64,000 bases of DNA from Candidatus Spongiihabitans sp. (GCF_965247905.1 NZ_OZ252047.1:196938-260937), one strand, 5' to 3'; shown: positions 16,559 through 26,598, counted from the stretch's first letter. Notes: generated from the letters alone by a model not told the origin. Program-made: numbers and translations.

Positions 16559-16823
16559 GAGATCAGGGTCAGAGTAGAAATTATTGGGGCTTGGGACCAG
16601 GTTTTTCTGGCTTCACTCTTCGTTGATAAAGTTGTTCAACTTGCTCCTTAAACCTTGCACTCCCAAATGCCATACAGCTATTTGTTGCATTTCTCAAATC
16701 ATCAACTAGTTCAACGTTAAAAATATCTTCAAACAAATCCCGATACTATACAAACATTACATTTTCAACGAATCAATTTGCTTAATTTTCTTAACAAATA
16801 ATTTCTACTCTGACCCTGATCTC
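16559..16823. mobile_element. MITE-A copy 1 (about 265 bp, about 25-bp terminal inverted repeats)
   Basis: GAGATCAGGGTCAGAGTAGAAATTATT ... AATAATTTCTACTCTGACCCTGATCTC. A near-identical copy lies at 26319-26598. No ORF. It abuts the ATL start codon. Confidence 0.75.
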
Positions 16824-16835
16824 TCTGGTCTCTCA

Positions 16836-17073
16836 CCGGCAATAACGCGGTGATGACGCAAGTCTGGATCGCGCTGTGCGTGTATTTACTCTTGGCGTTC
16901 ATCAAATTCCAGTCGTGGCTGGGCAAAAGCATGCGACAAATGCTCCGCCTGTTGCATCCTGACTTGTTCGACAAGCGCGACTTGATGGCGCTCTTGCGTG
17001 GCCACCCGCCCCCCAGGCCCGGCTTCAATCGCAATCAATCCTCGTTGCTGTGAAAGTTAATGGGACAGCAGTG
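16836..17073 (+). pseudogene. IS4-family transposase 3' remnant plus IS terminus (copy 1)
   Basis: Encodes NNAVMTQVWIALCVYLLLAFIKFQS...GFNRNQSSLL. It is near-identical to 25620-25866. The shared terminus ...CTGTGAAAGTTAATGGGACAGCAGTG ends at 17073. Confidence 0.75.
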
Positions 17074-17295
17074 ATATGGATTACAATGCGTTCTTGTCCA
17101 GCTTAATTCACCATAACATTTATTCTCCAGCCTGGAGATAATCTTTCTTTTTCCCGAAAGACACGCGATGTCGGGGCGGCCGTAATGCGGACCAATCTTA
17201 AACGTTGTCTTTACCCTTTCCTTGGAACGCTCTTCTCTTTCTTCTTCGCGATAACGAGTAACACCTTCACACTTTTTTTTCAGATACTTGTACAT
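17035..17295 (-). CDS. Small Cys-containing hypothetical protein, last gene of the kinase operon; 3' end apparently truncated by the IS4 terminus
   Basis: The ATG at 17295 lies 4 nt downstream of the kinase stop. The last 12-13 codons are encoded by the IS4 end sequence. No recognisable family. Confidence 0.3.
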   Translation of the reverse strand: MYKYLKKKCEGVTRYREEEREERSKERVKTTFKIGPHYGRPDIACLSGKRKIISRLENKCYGELSWTRTHCNPYHCCPINFHSNED

Positions 17296-17299
17296 TGCT

Positions 17300-19705
17300 T
17301 CAGTCCTTACCGCCGTTTCTTTTAAGCAGTTTTTCCACTGTAGTACTCCCTGTTTGCTTCGCGAAATGCAACGGTGTTTCGCCATAATCATTTGTCGCGT
17401 TTATATCCGCACCGTTTTGAATCAGTAGTGCGGCGACTTTGCCCGCATCTTTCAACGCGGCATGATGCAACGGCGTGTAGCCTTTGTTATTTTTCGCGTT
17501 TATATCCGCACCTTTTTGAATCAGTAGTGCGGCGACTTTGTCCGCATCCTTCCACGCGGCAACATGCAACGGTGTGTCGCCATCATCACGTTTCGCGTTT
17601 ATATCCGCACCTTTTTGAATCAGTAGTGCGGCGACTTTGTCCGCATCCTCCACAGCGGCATAATGCAACGGTGTTGCGCCAGAACCATTTTTCGCGTTTA
17701 TATCCGCACCTTTTTGAATCAGTAGTGCGGCGACTTTGCCCGCATCCAGCCACGCGGTAAAATGCAACGGTGTTGCGCCATCATCACGTTTCGCGTTTAT
17801 ATCCGCACCTTTTTGAATCAGTAGTGCGGCGACTTTGTCCGCATCCTCCACAGCGGCATAATGCAACGGTGTTGCGCCAGAACCATTTTTCGCGTTTATA
17901 TCCGCACCTTTTTGAATCAGTAGTGCGGCGACTTTGCCCGCATCCAGCCACGCGGTAAGATGCAACGGTGTTGCGCCATCATCATTTTTCGCGTTTATAT
18001 CCGCACCTTTTTGAATCAGTAGTGCGGCGACTTTGCCCGCATCATCCCGCGCGGCACCATGCAACGGCGTTTCGCCATATTTATTTTTCGCGTTTATATC
18101 CGCACTCTTTTTAATCAATAGTGCGGCGACTTTGCCCGCATCATTCCACGCGGTAAAATGCAACGGTGTGTCGCCAGGACCATTTTTCGCGTTTATATCC
18201 GCACCTTTTTGAATCAGTAGTGTGGCGATTTTGTCCGCATCATTCGCCGCGGCATAATGCAACGGTGTGTCGCCATCCCTATGCCAGCCATCATAATTCC
18301 TCCCGAACAAGCGCGGTGTTGTCTTCAATCCATCTGTCATGAGTTTGTTATCGGATTTTAATTTGGCATCCACCTTGGCGCCGGATTGCAACAGATGCTC
18401 CGCCAGCGTTGTGAAGTTCAACGTGGCAGCGTAGTGCAAGTCAGTCCAGTCGTTAGCATCCTTCGCCGTCGGCGAAGGCGGACGCCCGACCTTTGCCATA
18501 AATTGGGCAGTTTCATCGGCGAGGCGGGCGGCTTGTTCAGCAGCGATTCGTTGTTTTTCTTCCTCGGCGGCGATTCGTTGTTTTTCTTCATCGGCAGCAA
18601 TACGCTGTTGTTCTTGTTCAGCAACGATTCGTTGTTGTTCCTGCCATTTTTGATAGTGATTGCCGCCAAAAAACAACGCAGTAAACAGCAACAAAACGGC
18701 TATTATCACCAGCGGTTTTTTATGCGACGGGCGGGCTTCCGGTTTGGGGTTTTGCGGTGACGGAGGTGTGGCGTCGGGGGCTGTGCTAGGCACGGGGGCG
18801 GTGTCGACCGAAGGGCTTTCACCACCAAGCATCCGCAACCATTGCCCGACATCCTGCGGACGGTCTTTGGCATTTATCGATAAAGCGGATTCTATCGCCG
18901 CGATAAATTCGCCGCTGTAGCCTTCCGCCGACAATCGCGTCATCGGGTCCGGATTGCCAGTCGCCACTTCGGTGATACGCCAACTGCCTTCGGGCGGAGG
19001 GTGCCCGCTGATGGCGCGATACAACACCGCAGCCAGCGCGTATATGTCCGTGTATGCGCCCTGTCCGCCGCGCGTGGAATACTGCTCTGGCGGCGAATAA
19101 CCGGCTTTGACTATCGCGCTGATGCTGCGGCTACGTATCCCTATGGCTTGCCGCGCGGCACCAAAATCCAACAGCACCGGGCTGCCATCGGCACGGATGA
19201 TGATGTTGTCCGGCGAGATGTCGCGGTGCAATAATCCATCGGCATGCATGTGCTTGAGGGCATCCAGCAACGGGGCGATTATCGCGCCCAATGCGGGTTC
19301 GGATGGCGGTTGCGACAACGATTGCAGGTGCGCTTCGAAGCTCAAGCCGTCTTCGTAATCCAGCACCATATACGCGGTGTTATTGTCCTCAAAAATTTGA
19401 TGTACGCGCACGATGTTGGCGTGTCGAAATTTGGCGAGGTTGCGCGCTTCTTCCAAAAATCGGTCCAAGCCCCAGCGGTAATCTTCTTCATTACCGGCCG
19501 ATTTTGGATGCACGGTAACCCCCTCGCGCATCGCGAACTCGTTCGGCAGGTATTCCTTGACGGCAAAGCACGCGTGCAGGTCGGTGTCTTCCGCCAAATA
19601 GGTGACGCCGAAACCGCCTACGCCTAATACCGACAAGATTTCATATTGCCGCAACCGAGTTTCGGGCGGCAGTGCGGCTTTGTGTTCGGGGTCGGAGTGT
19701 TGCAT
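17300..19705 (-). CDS. Ser/Thr protein kinase - TM - coiled-coil - 11x ankyrin repeat protein
   Basis: Hanks kinase motifs (GVGGFGVTY, AVKEY, HRDISPDNII, DFGAAR, SPPE). Pro-rich linker. One TM helix (KKPLVIIAVLLLFTALFFGG). EQQRIAA 9-aa repeats. Then 11 ANK repeats (G.TPLH.AA....KVAALLIQKGADINAKN). Confidence 0.9.
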   Translation of the reverse strand: MQHSDPEHKAALPPETRLRQYEILSVLGVGGFGVTYLAEDTDLHACFAVKEYLPNEFAMREGVTVHPKSAGNEEDYRWGLDRFLEEARNLAKFRHANIVRVHQIFEDNNTAYMVLDYEDGLSFEAHLQSLSQPPSEPALGAIIAPLLDALKHMHADGLLHRDISPDNIIIRADGSPVLLDFGAARQAIGIRSRSISAIVKAGYSPPEQYSTRGGQGAYTDIYALAAVLYRAISGHPPPEGSWRITEVATGNPDPMTRLSAEGYSGEFIAAIESALSINAKDRPQDVGQWLRMLGGESPSVDTAPVPSTAPDATPPSPQNPKPEARPSHKKPLVIIAVLLLFTALFFGGNHYQKWQEQQRIVAEQEQQRIAADEEKQRIAAEEEKQRIAAEQAARLADETAQFMAKVGRPPSPTAKDANDWTDLHYAATLNFTTLAEHLLQSGAKVDAKLKSDNKLMTDGLKTTPRLFGRNYDGWHRDGDTPLHYAAANDADKIATLLIQKGADINAKNGPGDTPLHFTAWNDAGKVAALLIKKSADINAKNKYGETPLHGAARDDAGKVAALLIQKGADINAKNDDGATPLHLTAWLDAGKVAALLIQKGADINAKNGSGATPLHYAAVEDADKVAALLIQKGADINAKRDDGATPLHFTAWLDAGKVAALLIQKGADINAKNGSGATPLHYAAVEDADKVAALLIQKGADINAKRDDGDTPLHVAAWKDADKVAALLIQKGADINAKNNKGYTPLHHAALKDAGKVAALLIQNGADINATNDYGETPLHFAKQTGSTTVEKLLKRNGGKD
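17380..18260. repeat. 99-bp-period tandem DNA repeats encoding ankyrin repeats, including a near-perfect 198-bp duplication
   Basis: Units at about 17563-17760 and 17761-17958 are almost identical. The antisense track ORFs 17374-17760 and 17770-17958 end in identical 55-aa strings. Confidence 0.85.
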
Positions 19706-19719
19706 GGGGGAATTATAGT

Positions 19720-20553
19720 TTATGGTGCGGCAAAAACGCCCAGCAAAATTGGCGCAACCAAAGAGCTTTGTGTTTCCGTATATCGCCCTTTTCCGGCATC
19801 TTTGAGTTGCCGCAAAAACCGCTTGACCTCATCACCATCACCATCGCTGGTATTGACGGTGGTCACCGATCTTTTATCAATCGCCGAAAAACGCCGCGCG
19901 CCCGAAAGAATCGCGTTCTCCGTTCCGGGGTGCGGAACATCATCGGTTACCACCACAATCGTTTGTATTTCTGATTCGGTTCGCCACGGCGATTTCAGCG
20001 CCAGCTCAAAACCGCCCCCCAAATTCTCACCATCAGTGTCGTTATTGCCGTCGCCGCCACCAGCAGTAATCAGCACCAGGGCAGATTGTAAAGTTTTCAA
20101 TGAACTATCGGATGCGCTGATTTTTTGCAGTCGGAAGTAGGTATATCGCGCCGGATTTATGCCCTTGTCGTTAAAACCGATGATGCCAATCGCGACTGAC
20201 GGGGCGAGTTTTTCCAGCACTTCCGCCAAGTTACCCAACTCTTGTTTTAACGCGGCTATCTCTTCGCTCATGCTGCCGGTGGTATCCAACACAATCACCA
20301 CGTCCAAAGGTGGCAGTTGATGTTTTGGGGATTTCTTCAATTCACTAATCTGTGCGGCTTGCTGCGCTATGGTTTGCTCTTTTTGGTAGAGTTCGGTTTT
20401 GAGGGCGGCGAGTTCCTGGCGCAAATCAGGGACTTCTTTTTTATAGTATGGCAGGGCGATGACCGCAATAAGAATAAACGCCCCCATTGCCGATGCGAAC
20501 AAATCCAACGCCGACATGCTGAATATTTCCAGCCCTTTGCTGCGGCTTCTCAC
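19720..20553 (-). CDS. Membrane-anchored coiled-coil von Willebrand factor A (vWA) protein with an ExbD/TolR-like N-terminal anchor
   Basis: N-terminus RSRSKGLEIFSMSALDLFASAMGAFILIAVIALP is one TM helix with an Asp at its start. It is followed by a coiled coil (LRQELAALKTELYQKEQTIAQQAAQISELK) and a vWA domain with MIDAS-like VIVLDTTGSMSEE and VVVTDD. The GTG start overlaps the PP2C stop (GTGA). Confidence 0.8.
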   Translation of the reverse strand: MRSRSKGLEIFSMSALDLFASAMGAFILIAVIALPYYKKEVPDLRQELAALKTELYQKEQTIAQQAAQISELKKSPKHQLPPLDVVIVLDTTGSMSEEIAALKQELGNLAEVLEKLAPSVAIGIIGFNDKGINPARYTYFRLQKISASDSSLKTLQSALVLITAGGGDGNNDTDGENLGGGFELALKSPWRTESEIQTIVVVTDDVPHPGTENAILSGARRFSAIDKRSVTTVNTSDGDGDEVKRFLRQLKDAGKGRYTETQSSLVAPILLGVFAAP

Positions 20554-21347
20554 GGGCTGGGGGGCGGTTTTATTGCAAGCACAGTAACATTATCCTGATG
20601 TGGCGCACCCCGGGATTCTGTTTTTGCTACCAATGCGGCGGTGATATCGCTTGCGGTTTGTTGGCGCATGGAGTGCAGACAATCGGCGATTTCATCCTGC
20701 GTTAATGTGAGCAACCCATCGCTGGCCACCACAATTATCGGCGGAGCGGCACCATCCCATGCAATGCTGTTTTCGTCAACCAGCGCAATATCTTCACCCA
20801 TTAAAGCGGAACGCAAGGCATGCCGTTGTGAGTTTATTTTCGCATCTTCGCTCGATATTTTGCCTTCCATCACCGCTTGGTCCAACAACCCCCCCAGAGA
20901 ATGGTCGGCATTAATCTTTTGTAGCTGTTCGTCCATAAATATATATAAAAGCGAGTCACCAACGCTAATCCAGTGCAATGTGTCGTTATGGAGTAGTGTC
21001 GCAATCAATGTGCAGCCCATGCCGGTTAGTGAATTGTCTTCGCGTATTTTTGCGGCTAATGCACAGTTTGCCGCATGTAGCATATCCGTGGAAAGTTGTG
21101 GAATAGTACTTTCATCACATGACGCAGAAAAAGAAGAAATAAACTCTTTTACGGAAATTTCAGCAGCATCCGCGCCGCCCGCATGTCCACCCATGCCGTC
21201 TGCCAGCACCGCCAGCGTAGTGTTGGCATTGACCGGAAAGAATGCGTAAAAATCCTCCTGGCGCTCACGTTTCCCCTGTGCCGCACAACCTGAAAAATCT
21301 TTTTCTCTTTTCAGGACAGGTCTTCCCAATCGAAATCTGCGCCGCAA
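20550..21347 (-). CDS. PP2C-family Ser/Thr protein phosphatase
   Basis: PP2C motifs RERQEDF, VLADGMGGHAGG, VGDS, VVASDGL. The exact start is uncertain because the TTG at 21347 overlaps the upstream FHA gene by 37 nt. Confidence 0.9.
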   Translation of the reverse strand: MRRRFRLGRPVLKREKDFSGCAAQGKRERQEDFYAFFPVNANTTLAVLADGMGGHAGGADAAEISVKEFISSFSASCDESTIPQLSTDMLHAANCALAAKIREDNSLTGMGCTLIATLLHNDTLHWISVGDSLLYIFMDEQLQKINADHSLGGLLDQAVMEGKISSEDAKINSQRHALRSALMGEDIALVDENSIAWDGAAPPIIVVASDGLLTLTQDEIADCLHSMRQQTASDITAALVAKTESRGAPHQDNVTVLAIKPPPSP

Positions 21348-21784
21348 AACGGCACGAGTTGCAATACGGTTTTCCCCATTTTAATTTCATCGCCATGCTT
21401 GATTTCTCGCGGCTCTAACACAGGATCCTCGTTCAAGTAGGTGAGATTTTTTCCGTGACCGTGGCGTAGGTAAAACTTTCTGCCACGACCGTCATAAATC
21501 ACTTCGGCTTGATTTTCGCGTGCGATTTCGCTGTCGTTCACATCCAAGCAAACTGCGCAGTCCGCCGCCCGACCAATAATATTGACACCGTAGTGCAACG
21601 GAAAACTTTTTCCTCTTCGAGAACCGGAAACAGCCACCAACCAGCCGGTAACCGGCTCCAAATCTTCACTTTCGTTGCTTTCAGAAGGTGGTCGGTAAAC
21701 GGTGGTTTTCGGAGCGTCTGGGTTTTTCTTTTCGGGAGCGCTGCGGCGCAACATCCGCGTGGTATTTTCGGGATTGTCGGTCAT
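21311..21784 (-). CDS. FHA-domain protein (disordered Pro/Glu/Thr-rich N-terminus plus FHA)
   Basis: FHA core: GWLVAVSG...GKSFPLHYGVNIIGRAADCAVCLD...SEIARENQAEVIYD...FYLRHG...NLTYLN...GDEIKMGKTVLQLVPF. Confidence 0.85.
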   Translation of the reverse strand: MTDNPENTTRMLRRSAPEKKNPDAPKTTVYRPPSESNESEDLEPVTGWLVAVSGSRRGKSFPLHYGVNIIGRAADCAVCLDVNDSEIARENQAEVIYDGRGRKFYLRHGHGKNLTYLNEDPVLEPREIKHGDEIKMGKTVLQLVPFCGADFDWEDLS

Positions 21785-21796
21785 GAGTTTTACCTA

Positions 21797-22624
21797 TTAG
21801 TTCTTGTAAAGCCGATTGACAAGATTGTCAAGACAATACTGTACGCAGGTATTGAGCACGCTTTCTTCTTCGCCTTGCACGGCATGAAAAAAGAACACTA
21901 AAATCGACGCTTGAATCAACGCCAGCAAAGTAGTGTTAAACGCGACCGCCATTTTATTGGTGAGCTGTGACACGAAGTTGACACATTCGGGAACGCCCTC
22001 GCCACCGGCATATGCCAACGCATATGCGATGCCGAACACCGTGCCGATAAATCCGAGCGTGGGAATGAGCCACATGACATAGCGCAAAAAGTTATAACGT
22101 AGATCCAATTCATGTAAAAACAACTCGGCACTGGAGTTAAGCAGGCTGTTGGCTTGGTCAACCGCTCGCGAAGATTGAAACTGCAAAATGACACGCTTCG
22201 CCATACGTGGCAAAAAAGAAACGGCGGGGCGTGCGGTTAGCGTGCGATATATCTCGGGTAGCTGGGCGGCGGTCAGCACTGTTTCATCGTCCTCCGGCAA
22301 CAACCCTCTGTCGCATTCGGCGCGGTCATTTTTCGCCGAACGCAGACGCTTTGTTAATTCTCCCAAGCCGCCAAAAAATAAAATCCACATTAAATTTTGC
22401 AATGAGATTGGATAAAATTGAAATTCCCGGTCAATCAGCAATGCACCGATAAGCGACTCTTTCTGGTCGCCCAATAAAGGACTTTCAACGACACATTCCG
22501 GCGGCAACTCTCCGGTGGATATATTTTTATTTTCAAGCGGCAACCAGAAATGCAGCAATATCACGAACAACAATCCGATAACACCACCTCCGGCAAATCC
22601 AACAATTGTTTGGGCTGGACGCAC
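21797..22624 (-). CDS. MotA/TolQ/ExbB-family proton-channel-like membrane protein
   Basis: The C-terminal signature LRYVMWLIPTLGFIGTVFGIAYA...MAVAFNTTLLALIQASILVFFFH matches the conserved MotA_ExbB TM pair (..P.LGLLGTV.G....AL.TT..GL..A). An N-terminal TM helix is present. Confidence 0.8.
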   Translation of the reverse strand: MRPAQTIVGFAGGGVIGLLFVILLHFWLPLENKNISTGELPPECVVESPLLGDQKESLIGALLIDREFQFYPISLQNLMWILFFGGLGELTKRLRSAKNDRAECDRGLLPEDDETVLTAAQLPEIYRTLTARPAVSFLPRMAKRVILQFQSSRAVDQANSLLNSSAELFLHELDLRYNFLRYVMWLIPTLGFIGTVFGIAYALAYAGGEGVPECVNFVSQLTNKMAVAFNTTLLALIQASILVFFFHAVQGEEESVLNTCVQYCLDNLVNRLYKN

Positions 22625-22626
22625 GT

Positions 22627-23016
22627 TTATTTTTTTATAATCTCGCCGGTGATCGGGTCGCGTTTAACTGTGGCGGATGAGTTTATTGGATCGGCTGTTT
22701 GATTTTGTGGCGGAGGCGATACTTGCGAAAGAACTGCCATCGCTTCGGTCGAACCCGCCAACAACTGATGAACGACGACGACATATTCGCCCAACATCAT
22801 CATCGTTTTCGGGGTGATTGGATGCGGTCCGTGAACCGGTTGCCATTGCCCGTCAACGCGAATTTTGGTTCCGTTCGCGCTGTTATCATCCGAAACAAAC
22901 ATCTGATCCCGCGAATACAGGGTAATAGTGCAGTGCAATCGGCTGACCGTGCTATTGGAGACACGAACCAAACAACTCTCGGCACGCCCGACAGTCACTA
23001 CGATGGGTTCATTCAT
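22627..23016 (-). CDS. Small FHA-domain protein, first gene of the operon
   Basis: FHA core VTVGRAESCLVRVSNSTVSRLHCTITLYSRDQMFVSDDNSANGTKI. Its stop lies 2 nt before the MotA-like start. Confidence 0.85.
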   Translation of the reverse strand: MNEPIVVTVGRAESCLVRVSNSTVSRLHCTITLYSRDQMFVSDDNSANGTKIRVDGQWQPVHGPHPITPKTMMMLGEYVVVVHQLLAGSTEAMAVLSQVSPPPQNQTADPINSSATVKRDPITGEIIKK

Positions 23017-24022: not shown

Positions 24023-25063
24023 ATGACTAACAAACTGGAATACGATCTGGTAGGGATTGCGGAAATTGCTGAAATTGCAGGAATTTCCCGGCAGGCCGTG
24101 GTTAATTGGCGCGCCAGATTCCCAAATTTTCCTGTTCCAGCTGTTGAACTTAAATCCGGGCCGGTTTTCCGGCGATCACAAATCCGTGCATGGCTACACG
24201 CCAGGAGGTTTCCAATGGCACATATAATTTCAACTATTAATCTTAAAGGCGGGGTTGGAAAGACCCACACCACTGTGGCATTAGCCGAGGTGTATTCGGC
24301 ATCGTTTAATAAAAAGGTGTTGGTTATTGATTTGGACCCGCAGACCAACGCCACTATAATGCTCATCGGCGAAGAGCGATGGAGTGAGTTGAACGAGAAT
24401 GGTTATACCTTGGCGAGGTTATTCAAAGATGCATTGAACCCCGACACCGCTACTTTCGACATTGAGAAGACCCTACAAAAACGCGTGTCTGATGTGCGGG
24501 CGGCTAACTCGATAGATCTCTTGCCCTCCAGTTTGGATTTGATAGATGTGCAGGATCGATTAGCCACCGTGCCATCGGGTAAATTTTATGCAGTTAATCC
24601 AATTGAGCTTTTGAGTAGGGCTGTGAAACCTATTGTTGACGATTACGACATTGTGCTAATTGATTGTCCTCCGAATCTCGGGATTATCACCTTGAACGGT
24701 TTGCGTATATCCAGTGGTTACATTATCCCCACTATTCCAGACATCCTTTCGACATATGGTATTCCGCAAATCATAAAACGGGTGAAGGAGTTCTCCAAAC
24801 AAATAGCCGAGCCCATTGATCCGTTAGGTATAGTGATTTCCAAGTATCGCGAACAATCGAATGTACATCGGAACACTGTAAAGCGGCTAGGTGACAATTT
24901 TGATGCACCGCTGTTTCATACCATTATTAAAGAGAGTAATGATCTTGCGAGTGCTGCGGAATACGGCTCTACTAACACCTTGAAGCAAAAGTATAGTTAC
25001 CATGGGCTGGTAGAAGTATACGAATCTTTGGCAACAGAAATTTTGGGAGCGTTGGGAGAATGA
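24023..25063 (+). CDS. HTH-fused ParA/Soj-family ATPase
   Basis: N-terminal excisionase/MerR-like HTH (IAEIAGISRQAVVNWRARFPNFP...FRRSQIRAWL). This is followed by the deviant Walker A NLKGGVGKTHT, DLDPQ, and Walker B VLIDCPP. Confidence 0.85.
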   Translation: MTNKLEYDLVGIAEIAEIAGISRQAVVNWRARFPNFPVPAVELKSGPVFRRSQIRAWLHARRFPMAHIISTINLKGGVGKTHTTVALAEVYSASFNKKVLVIDLDPQTNATIMLIGEERWSELNENGYTLARLFKDALNPDTATFDIEKTLQKRVSDVRAANSIDLLPSSLDLIDVQDRLATVPSGKFYAVNPIELLSRAVKPIVDDYDIVLIDCPPNLGIITLNGLRISSGYIIPTIPDILSTYGIPQIIKRVKEFSKQIAEPIDPLGIVISKYREQSNVHRNTVKRLGDNFDAPLFHTIIKESNDLASAAEYGSTNTLKQKYSYHGLVEVYESLATEILGALGE

Positions 25064-25439: not shown

Positions 25440-25866
25440 AGTAATCACTATTTCTCATGAAGCAACACTTTAAGCACTTGCTCGCGCAAGCGGTGGACGA
25501 GTTGTGTCGGCAGGGCGTGTTGGAGCAGGGCGCGGATGCGGTTGCCGACCTTTATCAAGCGCGTTGGCAGGTGGAATTGTTCTTTAAGTGGATCAAGCAA
25601 AACCTGAAGATAAAGTCCTTCATCGGCGCCGGCAATAACGCGGTGATGACGCAAGTCTGGGTCGCGCTGTGCGTGTGTTTACTCTTGGCGTTCATCAAAT
25701 TCCAGTCGCGGCTGGGCAAAAGCATGCGACAAATGCTCCGCCTGTTGCATCTTGACTTGTTCGACAAGCGCGACTTGATGGCGCTCTTGCGTGGCGACCC
25801 GCCCCCCAGGCCCGGCTTCAATCGCAATCAATCCTCGTTGCTGTGAAAGTTAATGGGACAGCAGTG
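25440..25866 (+). pseudogene. IS4-family transposase 3' remnant plus IS terminus (copy 2)
   Basis: Contains the DDE C-terminal Y-2-R-3-E-6-K signature (LYQARWQVELFFKWIKQNLKIKSF). It ends with the same terminus as copy 1. Confidence 0.8.
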
Positions 25867-26071
25867 GTTGAGCAACTGCTCGCCGTCCTCCTAATCCGAG
25901 ACGAGAAGTACAGAAGAATAAAAGCTTTTTTACAGTCAAAATACTTGCTTACGGTACGGAAATAACTTTCAGAATGGAGTAGCCTTCAGCAAATAATCGC
26001 CGCTCACATCCAATTATTTATTCTGTATTGAGGTAACCCTCATTGGCACGCAAAAATGCGATTGCAAGTTC

Positions 26072-26318
26072 ATGAACAAACTTGATGACACACTCGATGA
26101 AATCATCTATCTGGCGCGGGAATATGGTTTAGTTCTGCGTGGCGTATTTTGCGTCAATGAAGATGACAATGTGCCAGAAATCGCCGAGGGCGTTCACGCA
26201 TCAACGCTGATTTTATTTGGTAATGCGGGTTCTTCGTTTTGGGAATGTTTTTCAGGCTCGAGAGAGGTTGCTGATGGTCAGGCCGACCCATTGAACCGGT
26301 GGAGTCAAAGAGTGGGCG
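26072..26318 (+). pseudogene. 5' fragment of a hypothetical gene truncated by MITE-A copy 2
   Basis: The ORF reads MNKLDDTLDEIIYLAREYGL...DPLNRWSQRVG and then runs into the MITE terminal repeat. Confidence 0.4.
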
Positions 26319-26598
26319 CAGATCAGGGTCAGAGCGCAGATCAGGATCAGAGTAGAAATTATTGGGGCTTGGGAGCAGGTTTTTCTGGCTTCACTCTTCG
26401 TTGATAAAGTTGTTCAACTTGTTCCTTAAACCTTGCACTCCCAAATGCCATACAGCTATTTGTTGCATTTCTCAAATCATCAACTAGTTCAACGTTCAAA
26501 ATATCTTCAAACAAATCCCGATACTATACAAGCATTACATTTTCAACGAATCAATTTGCTTAACAAATACAAATAATTTCTACTCTGACCCTGATCTC
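26319..26598. mobile_element. MITE-A copy 2 (left terminal repeat partially duplicated)
   Basis: Near-identical to 16559-16823. The left end shows CAGATCAGGGTCAGAG followed by CGCAGATCAGGATCAGAGTAGAAATT. The right end is AATAATTTCTACTCTGACCCTGATCTC. Confidence 0.75.

Follow-up and report, generated by a model that had tools for sequence, protein, structure and literature searches.

A stretch of 64,000 nt from Candidatus Spongiihabitans sp. (GCF_965247905.1 NZ_OZ252047.1:196938-260937), referred to below as the window and used as the coordinate system throughout, carries on its minus strand a single operon of six genes (17300-23016) that includes a MotA/TolQ/ExbB-like channel gene and the gene of a membrane-tethered von Willebrand factor A (vWA) protein. 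Its most likely product is a non-canonical representative of the class of 5:2 ion-driven motors formed by MotAB, ExbBD, TolQR and ZorAB, in which the channel and the vWA protein probably assemble into a stator-like complex, as candidate A-subunit and candidate B-subunit, respectively. A first-pass annotation of the window had proposed such a pair and had likened the vWA protein to the ExbD/TolR/MotB anchor; the idea is judged largely right, although its homology component was unsupported.

The channel (275 aa, four predicted transmembrane (TM) helices; 21797-22624, minus strand) is a true MotA/TolQ/ExbB member. When the proteins of the operon were assigned to domain families with Pfam and NCBIfam, it passed the PF01618 MotA_ExbB profile with a score of 42.3 bits (cutoff, 22.9; E=7.5e-11, residues 149-251). 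Searches of the PDB by sequence only gave no significant match (E=0.4-0.6), the profile matches to the pore helices of MotA and PomA being weak (E about 0.4-1.4), and a fold search was therefore required. With the AlphaFold2 (AF2) model of the protein (predicted local distance difference test score, pLDDT, 88.7) as Foldseek query, the top PDB folds were TolQ (9avi_A, E=6.7e-4; 8vlw, 9ddm and 8odt) and ExbB, followed by MotA, PomA and ZorA, and the top 49 PDB matches were all chains of one of these five proteins, with a target-normalised TM-score of up to 0.71. A homologue search found 2376 proteins, with about 46-60% identity among the 120 listed.

Within the pore-forming helix pair of the channel (residues 183-246; 21887-22078, minus strand), the residues P188, G191, G194, T195, G198, A228, F229, T231 and T232 were invariant in 38 family members, and the codons of T195 (22040-22042) and T232 (21929-21931) were read back from the DNA. 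By hhalign, T195 aligned with T145 of TolQ and T148 of ExbB, T232 with T178 of TolQ and T181 of ExbB, and P188 with P138 of TolQ. In solved complexes, the pore threonines of TolQ and ExbB surround the Asp of the partner subunit (PMC12204202). Compared to TolQ, the channel has an extra helix (residues 3-27), which gives it a MotA-like four-helix topology, and it ends 29 residues past the last TM helix. In the family alignment, T115, located in an LPEDExT loop, was near-invariant; its use as a docking site for a forkhead-associated (FHA) protein is speculative. In the channel of the window, the first periplasmic loop is also enlarged by about 20-25 residues (residues about 29-56; 22420-22540), an insertion absent from the other aligned homologues and modelled by AF2 as a low-confidence beta-hairpin.

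The vWA protein (277 aa; 19720-20553, minus strand) was matched in Pfam by VWA_2, VWA and Integrin_beta. Both open reading frames (ORFs) exist as the first-pass annotation had described them, by Pfam matches and by sequence read-back. Its residues 1-36, MRSRSKGLEIFSMSALDLFASAMGAFILIAVIALPY, are here called the trans-pore-helix (TPH) module (20446-20553, minus strand), which consists of a basic cytoplasmic tail and a TM helix bearing Asp17. The peptide SMSALDLFASAMGAFILIAVIALP, Asp17 itself (codon 20503-20505) and the DTTGS motif (residues 90-94; 20272-20286) were confirmed by direct read-back. In the AF2 model (pLDDT 86.2), the TM helix spans residues 14-33, with Asp17 at its cytoplasmic edge as originally noted, and is followed by a single long, continuous helix that constitutes the coiled-coil stalk (residues 44-73; 20335-20424, minus strand) and by a vWA fold (residues 83-274; 19732-20307, minus strand; Pfam VWA and VWA_2) with a metal ion-dependent adhesion site (MIDAS)-like D90-T-T-G-S94 and an invariant D204. 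This fold resembled by Foldseek the vWA domains of integrin beta I, ITIH1, CMG2/ANTXR and the pilus adhesin SpaC (E about 1e-8). The description of the periplasmic part as a coiled-coil stalk plus a MIDAS-containing vWA domain was thus borne out by AF2, Pfam and read-back.

The TPH module was far better conserved than the vWA domain of the same protein. A search for homologues of the vWA protein found 727 proteins, and among the 120 listed the overall identity was 27-58%, whereas the first 36 residues or so were nearly identical across them, with the pattern M[KR]xRxRE[IV]N[IV]FSMSALDLFASALGAFIL...P and the invariant positions F11, S14-A20, G24, F26 and P35. Asp17, whose conservation in orthologues had been set as a test of the proposed pair, was present in every homologue examined. 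In 212 unique helix sequences, which had been chosen by a motif that includes the Asp and thus provide no independent test of its presence, the start Met was located exactly 16 residues ahead of the Asp in 90% of the cases, and a Gly at Asp+7 and a Phe at Asp+9 were invariant. When a profile of the 42-residue module was searched against 1.84 billion proteins, 1140 representative clusters (representatives at 50% identity) were obtained at E<=1e-3, with the module nearly always at residue 1. A near-invariant module in proteins of 27-58% overall identity, found in that many clusters, is far more than expected by chance.

The topology signals of the helix matched the orientation of ExbD, TolR and MotB. 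The average number of Lys plus Arg residues was 3.3 in the N-terminal flank of the helix and 0.76 in its C-terminal flank, a bias that indicates an N-in orientation, with the tail in the cytoplasm and the vWA domain in the periplasm. The 13 positions of the helix closest to the cytoplasm were conserved on every face, and the helical conservation moment showed no one-sided pattern, as would suit a helix that is enclosed and not an anchor exposed to lipid. As the window holds only one helix gene, a homodimer is implied.

The same helix was also found on proteins with unrelated heads. Among 139 newly retrieved top matches of the module profile, 48 had a vWA domain, about 35-40 had a different head with a DxDLH motif and a weak likeness to DUF2135, and one (P0402) had an added peptidase M15 domain. 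Therefore, the helix is a portable module in its own right and does not belong to the vWA domain as such. Its connection to the non-vWA head (motif DxDLHVxDP...EEDxTxGPGxE; weak DUF2135 match, E=0.001) is made by coiled coils, and examples were seen at L001:8967-9803(-), L006:9114-9884 and L028:5386-6117 and in P0372, P0388 and P0402, among others.

The distance between the Asp and the MIDAS motif ranged from 40 to 199 residues in single genes. In contrast, diverged helix-vWA paralogues encoded as a pair had the same spacing, as predicted for a stalk made of two chains in register: 94/94 in L007, and 122/122 in 10 loci of the type described below as B (36% identity between the paralogues), which are closely related and therefore represent few independent cases. 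Paired type-B loci were seen in L087-L097, L110, L117 and L120.

The association between both genes was followed across genomes and metagenomes in both directions. From 424 confirmed loci, 80 from species-representative genomes were fetched via the vWA protein, spanning Gammaproteobacteria, Alphaproteobacteria, Rhodothermales/Bacteroidota, Acidobacteriota, Gemmatimonadota and Binatia, and 64 of them had a channel gene within 10 kb. In the reverse direction, 80 metagenomic loci were fetched via the channel gene; a helix gene was present in all of the 32 that had at least 1.5 kb on both sides, at a median gap of 26 bp, and the gene directly upstream of the channel was an FHA gene in 53 of the 67 checkable loci. 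Therefore, the co-occurrence of helix and channel genes is essentially obligate both ways, and the linkage across genomes that the first-pass annotation had asked for was found (64/80 and 32/32 loci).

Three architectures were distinguished. Type A is that of the window, with the usual order in the genome loci being FHA1, channel, FHA2, PP2C, a protein of about 500 aa, helix-vWA and kinase; type B consists of kinase, FHA, channel, helix-vWA, FHA and helix-vWA, with two diverged helix-vWA paralogues; and type C of helix-vWA, helix-vWA, FHA, FHA, channel and kinase. FHA2 follows the channel gene in type-A loci, and in most loci the helix gene has a kinase gene as a neighbour.

No canonical ExbD, TolR or MotB gene accompanied the channel. 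In the window, a phmmer search of all ORFs of at least 50 aa with the Escherichia coli proteins and a motif scan were both negative, as originally claimed, and by phmmer and motif no ORF in the 80 genome loci matched E. coli TolR, ExbD or MotB. ExbD was detected in only 3 of the 80 metagenomic loci, and the one examined (L152) was part of a separate, complete ExbB-ExbD-TonB-tetratricopeptide repeat (TPR) system. Thus, a canonical ExbD or MotB partner is not consistently encoded next to the channel orthologues (0/80 genome loci and 3/80 metagenomic loci).

Several observations weigh against a motor made of these two proteins. No profile method gave a significant similarity between the helix and the TM segments of ExbD, TolR or MotB. 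The full vWA protein had no ExbD or MotB_plug match in Pfam or NCBIfam; 52 isolated N-terminal segments searched against Pfam at E<=10 gave scattered chance matches and neither of these two families; and the helix profile matched nothing at E<=10 among all PDB sequences. By hhalign against an ExbD/TolR alignment, only the four residues EINI were aligned, with a score of 8.65 compared to a mean of 8.5 for the column-shuffled null, a match not better than 83 of 200 column shuffles, and the alignment in global mode was meaningless; this negative is a weak one, as the ExbD/TolR profile is shallow (the TolR homologues listed are near-identical enterobacterial proteins). In the window, the channel and vWA genes are 1.2 kb apart, with FHA2 and PP2C in between, and not adjacent. 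In 16 of the 80 loci selected through the vWA protein, no channel gene was present in the fetched flanks, although several of these came from contigs of limited length or represented a second copy, the genome in question having a complete locus at another site. As a further line of evidence, the mutual information of channel and helix columns was considered and rejected, as subtype and phylogeny dominated and the top pairs were scattered over the whole protein. Finally, literature searches gave no experimental work on any family member.

The claimed resemblance to the ExbD/TolR/MotB anchor was therefore statistically unsupported, both in profile searches and by hhalign. By eye, the layouts are alike (basic tail, E-I-N-[IV], Asp, hydrophobic run and Pro), with the spacings from EINI to Asp and from Asp to Pro differing from those of ExbD/TolR by 2 and 4 residues, respectively. 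Against E. coli MotB, 11 residues of the helix could be paired (FASGMGAFVLL with FMTAMMAFFLV; pairwise E=0.03), a pairing that shifts the Asp by one position. Given this lack of significant similarity, the vWA protein is filed as functionally analogous to ExbD, TolR and MotB and not as a demonstrated member of their families. It has a single-pass, N-in TM helix, a conserved Asp near the cytoplasmic end and a gene linked to that of an A-subunit, and it has neither significant similarity to the families nor a periplasmic ExbD-fold or OmpA-like peptidoglycan-binding domain. The proposal of the TM-vWA protein as the missing B-subunit thus stood in part: that it works like one is supported by context and conservation (conserved Asp, synteny and the Thr ring of the channel), whereas the homology of the anchor is not.

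A motor class of this kind was predicted in a 2025 paper, in which TM-tethered vWA proteins are combined with a TolQ-like channel (PMC12204202). There, a trans-pore helix like that of TolR/ExbD, with the conserved Asp, is predicted for the vWA proteins; in AlphaFold 3 (AF3) 5:2 models of TolQ-associated vWA proteins, exemplified by Idiomarina, the Asp pair lies inside the Thr ring; and the vWA/TolQ-like genes, searched with an Idiomarina query, are predominantly heterologous pairs from Proteobacteria and Verrucomicrobia (PMC12204202). The operon of the window has in common with these motors the TM-tethered vWA protein, the conserved helix Asp, the lack of an SHLS/His motif (by direct reading, the helix contains no His at all), a tolQ-like gene nearby, the absence of tolR, exbD and motB, and the occurrence in Proteobacteria. 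It differs from them in its single helix gene, although paired subtypes with the same channel family exist in metagenomes, and in the position of FHA2 and PP2C between the channel and vWA genes. As loci of Idiomarina and Pseudidiomarina (L051 and L052) and the paired subtypes fall within the present family, both are regarded as systems of the same kind. The text of that paper makes no mention of kinases, phosphatases, FHA proteins or non-vWA heads. Our literature searches returned only PMC12204202 for the idea of a vWA motor and no paper in which a MotA-like protein is connected to FHA, PP2C and kinase genes; the fixed association with FHA, kinase and PP2C and the non-vWA heads on the helix appear to be undescribed.

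Compared to the known motors, the closest A-subunit fold was that of TolQ-TolR and ExbB-ExbD, with which the system also has in common the Pro, Gly and Thr residues of the pore helices and an N-in, single-pass partner with an Asp near the cytoplasmic end and a basic tail and E-I-N-I-like motif ahead of the helix. It differs from them in the additional N-terminal TM helix of the A-subunit of the window (four in total, as in MotA), in a vWA partner without an ExbD-fold periplasmic domain, and in the absence of a TonB- or TolA-like third component. With MotA-MotB and PomA-PomB, it has in common the four-TM A-subunit, the weak profile match of the pore helices and the 11-residue match to the MotB TM helix, whereas no OmpA-like peptidoglycan-binding domain or plug helix was recognised and no flagellar genes were found nearby. 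Like ZorA-ZorB of Zorya, it would be a MotAB-like complex devoted to functions beyond motility or import and tied to cytoplasmic signalling, and its channel is weakly similar to ZorA in PADLOC and the PDB; in contrast to Zorya, it has neither the long tail of ZorA nor the peptidoglycan-binding domain of ZorB, and ZorC/D are absent. The PADLOC matches to ZorA (E about 6e-4) were restricted to the pore helices of the channel, with no system-level match at the operon and no match for the vWA protein. The phosphorylation part of the operon has other relatives. The PpkA(vWA)-PppA-Fha1 set of the Pseudomonas H1-T6SS is a Thr-phosphorylation module with a vWA element. A vWA-STK-FHA-PP2C operon, where STK stands for Ser/Thr kinase, is found in Deinococcus (DRA0331-0334; bioRxiv 10.64898/2026.01.23.701218). 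Both have in common with the operon of the window a membrane Ser/Thr kinase, PP2C, FHA and vWA in one operon, but they are without a MotA/TolQ-like channel and without a conserved, Asp-bearing TM helix on the vWA protein.

From the domain identities, monomer folds, conservation, topology signals and synteny observed, we infer a physical assembly and its stoichiometry, ion coupling, regulation by phosphorylation and biological output as follows. Five copies of the TolQ/MotA-like channel would form a pentamer in the membrane, and two copies of the vWA protein would insert their N-terminal trans-pore helices in its centre, with Asp17 at the cytoplasmic end within the ring of T195 and T232. Both helices would continue into a parallel coiled-coil stalk holding two MIDAS-type vWA domains in the periplasm. 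A flow of protons (or Na+) via the Asp/Thr site would then rotate or displace the pentamer with respect to the dimer, so that the periplasmic vWA head may be mechanically driven or, alternatively, its ligand-binding state may gate the ion flow. On the cytoplasmic side, FHA1, FHA2, PP2C and the membrane kinase could use Ser/Thr phosphorylation to read or control the face of the channel.

A more extended and tentative possibility is that channel, trans-pore-helix protein and FHA/kinase constitute a mechanosignalling machine that is driven by ions and regulated by phosphorylation, as a bacterial equivalent of integrin signalling. The 5:2 motor would pull on, or be stalled by, a periplasmic MIDAS head or one of the interchangeable DUF2135-like or peptidase heads, and its mechanical state would be written into, or set by, phosphorylation of a channel Thr, for example T115, and read by the upstream FHA protein.

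Other explanations of the same data have to be weighed. If the helix were a mere membrane anchor, the vWA protein, PP2C, kinase and FHA proteins would make up a phospho-signalling module, and the MotA-like protein would work alone or with an unlinked TolR or ExbD. Sets of vWA, PP2C, STK and FHA without a MotA-like gene do exist, as in Deinococcus DRA0331-0334 (bioRxiv 10.64898/2026.01.23.701218), and both the 16 channel-less vWA loci and the lack of significant similarity of the helix to ExbD, TolR or MotB are in line with this view. However, a plain anchor is not expected to be the best-conserved part of its protein, with a buried, invariant Asp and conservation on all faces, or to bear unrelated heads; no channel locus of sufficient length is without a helix gene, which in most cases abuts that of the channel, and the channel retains the Thr ring whose known role is to surround the Asp of a partner. 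We thus consider a mere anchor quite improbable. Very unlikely, in our judgement, is a regulated ion channel that does not rotate, in which a vWA ligand or phosphorylation would gate an Asp/Thr leak without producing a mechanical output. Rotation is not required by any of the data, and no peptidoglycan-binding or TonB-like element that could anchor either part was found. To our knowledge, however, all structurally characterised MotA, ExbB, TolQ and ZorA complexes are interpreted as 5:2 rotary machines, and the matched stalk lengths and the rigid coiled coil suggest mechanical transmission.

The complex could also be a Zorya-like sensor for envelope surveillance or anti-phage defence, in which the vWA or another head would sense a perturbation of the periplasm and the motor would relay it to FHA, kinase and protease effectors, without transducing force on an outer-membrane or extracellular ligand. 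Its patchy distribution across phyla, the swappable heads, the several paralogues per genome, the abundance of kinases, protease-FHA fusions and a TPR-CHAT protein among the neighbours, the insertion sequence (IS)-derived repeats bracketing the operon of the window and the weak ZorA matches in PADLOC would all suit such a role. Nevertheless, no ZorC/D-like or other recognised effector was found, the PADLOC matches are at the level of a domain only, the channel is without the long ZorA-type tail, and no phenotype is known for the family, so that a sensor of this type appears unlikely. A stator-like complex of channel and vWA protein accommodates the conservation of the helix, its linkage to the channel gene and the Thr ring, and is the reading followed here.

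The remaining genes of the operon encode proteins related to Ser/Thr phosphorylation. All six genes are arranged head to tail, with intergenic gaps of 2-14 nt or short overlaps, in the order FHA1, channel, FHA2, PP2C, TM-coiled-coil-vWA and Ser/Thr kinase-TM-ankyrin. FHA1 is a small cytoplasmic FHA-domain protein of 129 aa (22627-23016, minus strand; PF00498, E=1.6e-9) whose stop codon is 2 nt before the start of the channel gene. FHA2 (157 aa; 21311-21784, minus strand; PF00498, E=1.8e-10) is FhaB/FipA-like, with a Thr-rich N-terminal tail, and matched the NCBIfam model FhaB_Rv0019c below its cutoff (E=3.5e-12). The PP2C-type Ser/Thr phosphatase (265 aa; 20550-21347, minus strand; PF13672, E=4.6e-12) matched Stp1_PP2C_phos also below the cutoff (E=5.4e-41). 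The last gene (17300-19705, minus strand) encodes a Ser/Thr kinase (residues 1-300; Pkinase, E=2.7e-30) followed by a TM helix (residues about 331-349), a short coiled coil and about 10 ankyrin repeats (Ank, E=7.8e-74), which are presumably periplasmic; these are Pfam values, and the TM helix and the repeats were confirmed by direct reading of the sequence. Within this gene, nine tandem 99-nt units encoding 33-aa ankyrin repeats, mostly with 85-90% DNA identity, were found at 17266-18357, and 27-nt repeats encoding an (AEQEQQRIA)n coiled coil directly after the TM helix at 18532-18639; their near identity at the DNA level suggests a recent expansion of the repeats.

The start of the vWA gene is a GTG at 20553 that overlaps the PP2C stop codon (GTGA), and the long N-terminus that results is backed by the homologues and by RefSeq WP_424947183.1 (277 aa); the RefSeq proteins of Candidatus Spongiihabitans sp. 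are the long forms for both the vWA protein (WP_424947183.1) and the channel (WP_424947186.1). One deposited annotation of the genome places both starts too late, yielding a vWA protein of 265 aa (from Met13) and a channel of 255 aa, so that the helix module loses its basic tail and the channel the greater part of its first TM helix. At a larger scale, the operon and a ParA-like gene (24023-25063) are bracketed by direct repeats (226 and 238 nt, 98% identity) within 16560-17073 and 25629-26563, and one of the bracketing repeats corresponds to the 3' end of an ORF for an IS-type transposase (16850-17053 and 25457-25846); what lies between them may be a mobile or rearranged island.

Additional genes were observed in related loci. 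Most type-A loci (L003:8514-10004, L051:8471-9967, L017:8001-10004 and about 40 others) encode, between PP2C and the vWA protein, the protein of about 500 aa mentioned above, in which a signal sequence and a weakly trypsin-like periplasmic part are combined with a coiled coil and, at the C-terminus, an FHA domain; it is absent from the window and from L002. Loci of the Alteromonadales type (L051:13353-15917, L052, L016, L018, L024, L036 and L060) have a second PP2C-like protein of about 550 aa as well as a protein of 850 aa, encoded downstream of a short soluble kinase, that combines a thermolysin-like M4 peptidase domain with two FHA domains. A divergent gene for a 1039-aa TPR-CHAT (caspase-like) protein is located between the Ton system and the helix-vWA pair in L152 (4062-7181, minus strand), and others were seen in L138 and L157 (type C). 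Orphan helix-vWA genes accompanied by kinases, with no channel gene within 10 kb, were found in L004, L006, L007, L008, L009, L034, L042, L057, L063 and L074, in some cases with a complete locus elsewhere in the same genome or contig (L009 with L054; L056 with L057); a single channel may have several alternative helix proteins as partners.

Known 5:2 motors power flagella, TonB-dependent import, Tol-Pal, gliding and Zorya defence with a small set of B-subunits. In the family described here, the B-subunit is apparently reduced to a 36-residue plug-in helix, to which different periplasmic heads are attached through a stalk of adjustable length. If the proposed assembly is true, the motor class would be extended to a large uncharacterised family (1140 helix clusters and 2376 channel homologues), and a direct test of how ion flow can actuate an adhesion-type domain would become available. 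It would also tie stator motors to Ser/Thr phospho-signalling, a coupling between a stator-type motor and a Hanks kinase that has not been previously described and that would extend across at least five phyla. The ankyrin repeats of the kinase, together with the many related loci from marine and sponge-associated metagenome-assembled genomes, suggest that such a system could be of relevance to sponge symbiosis.

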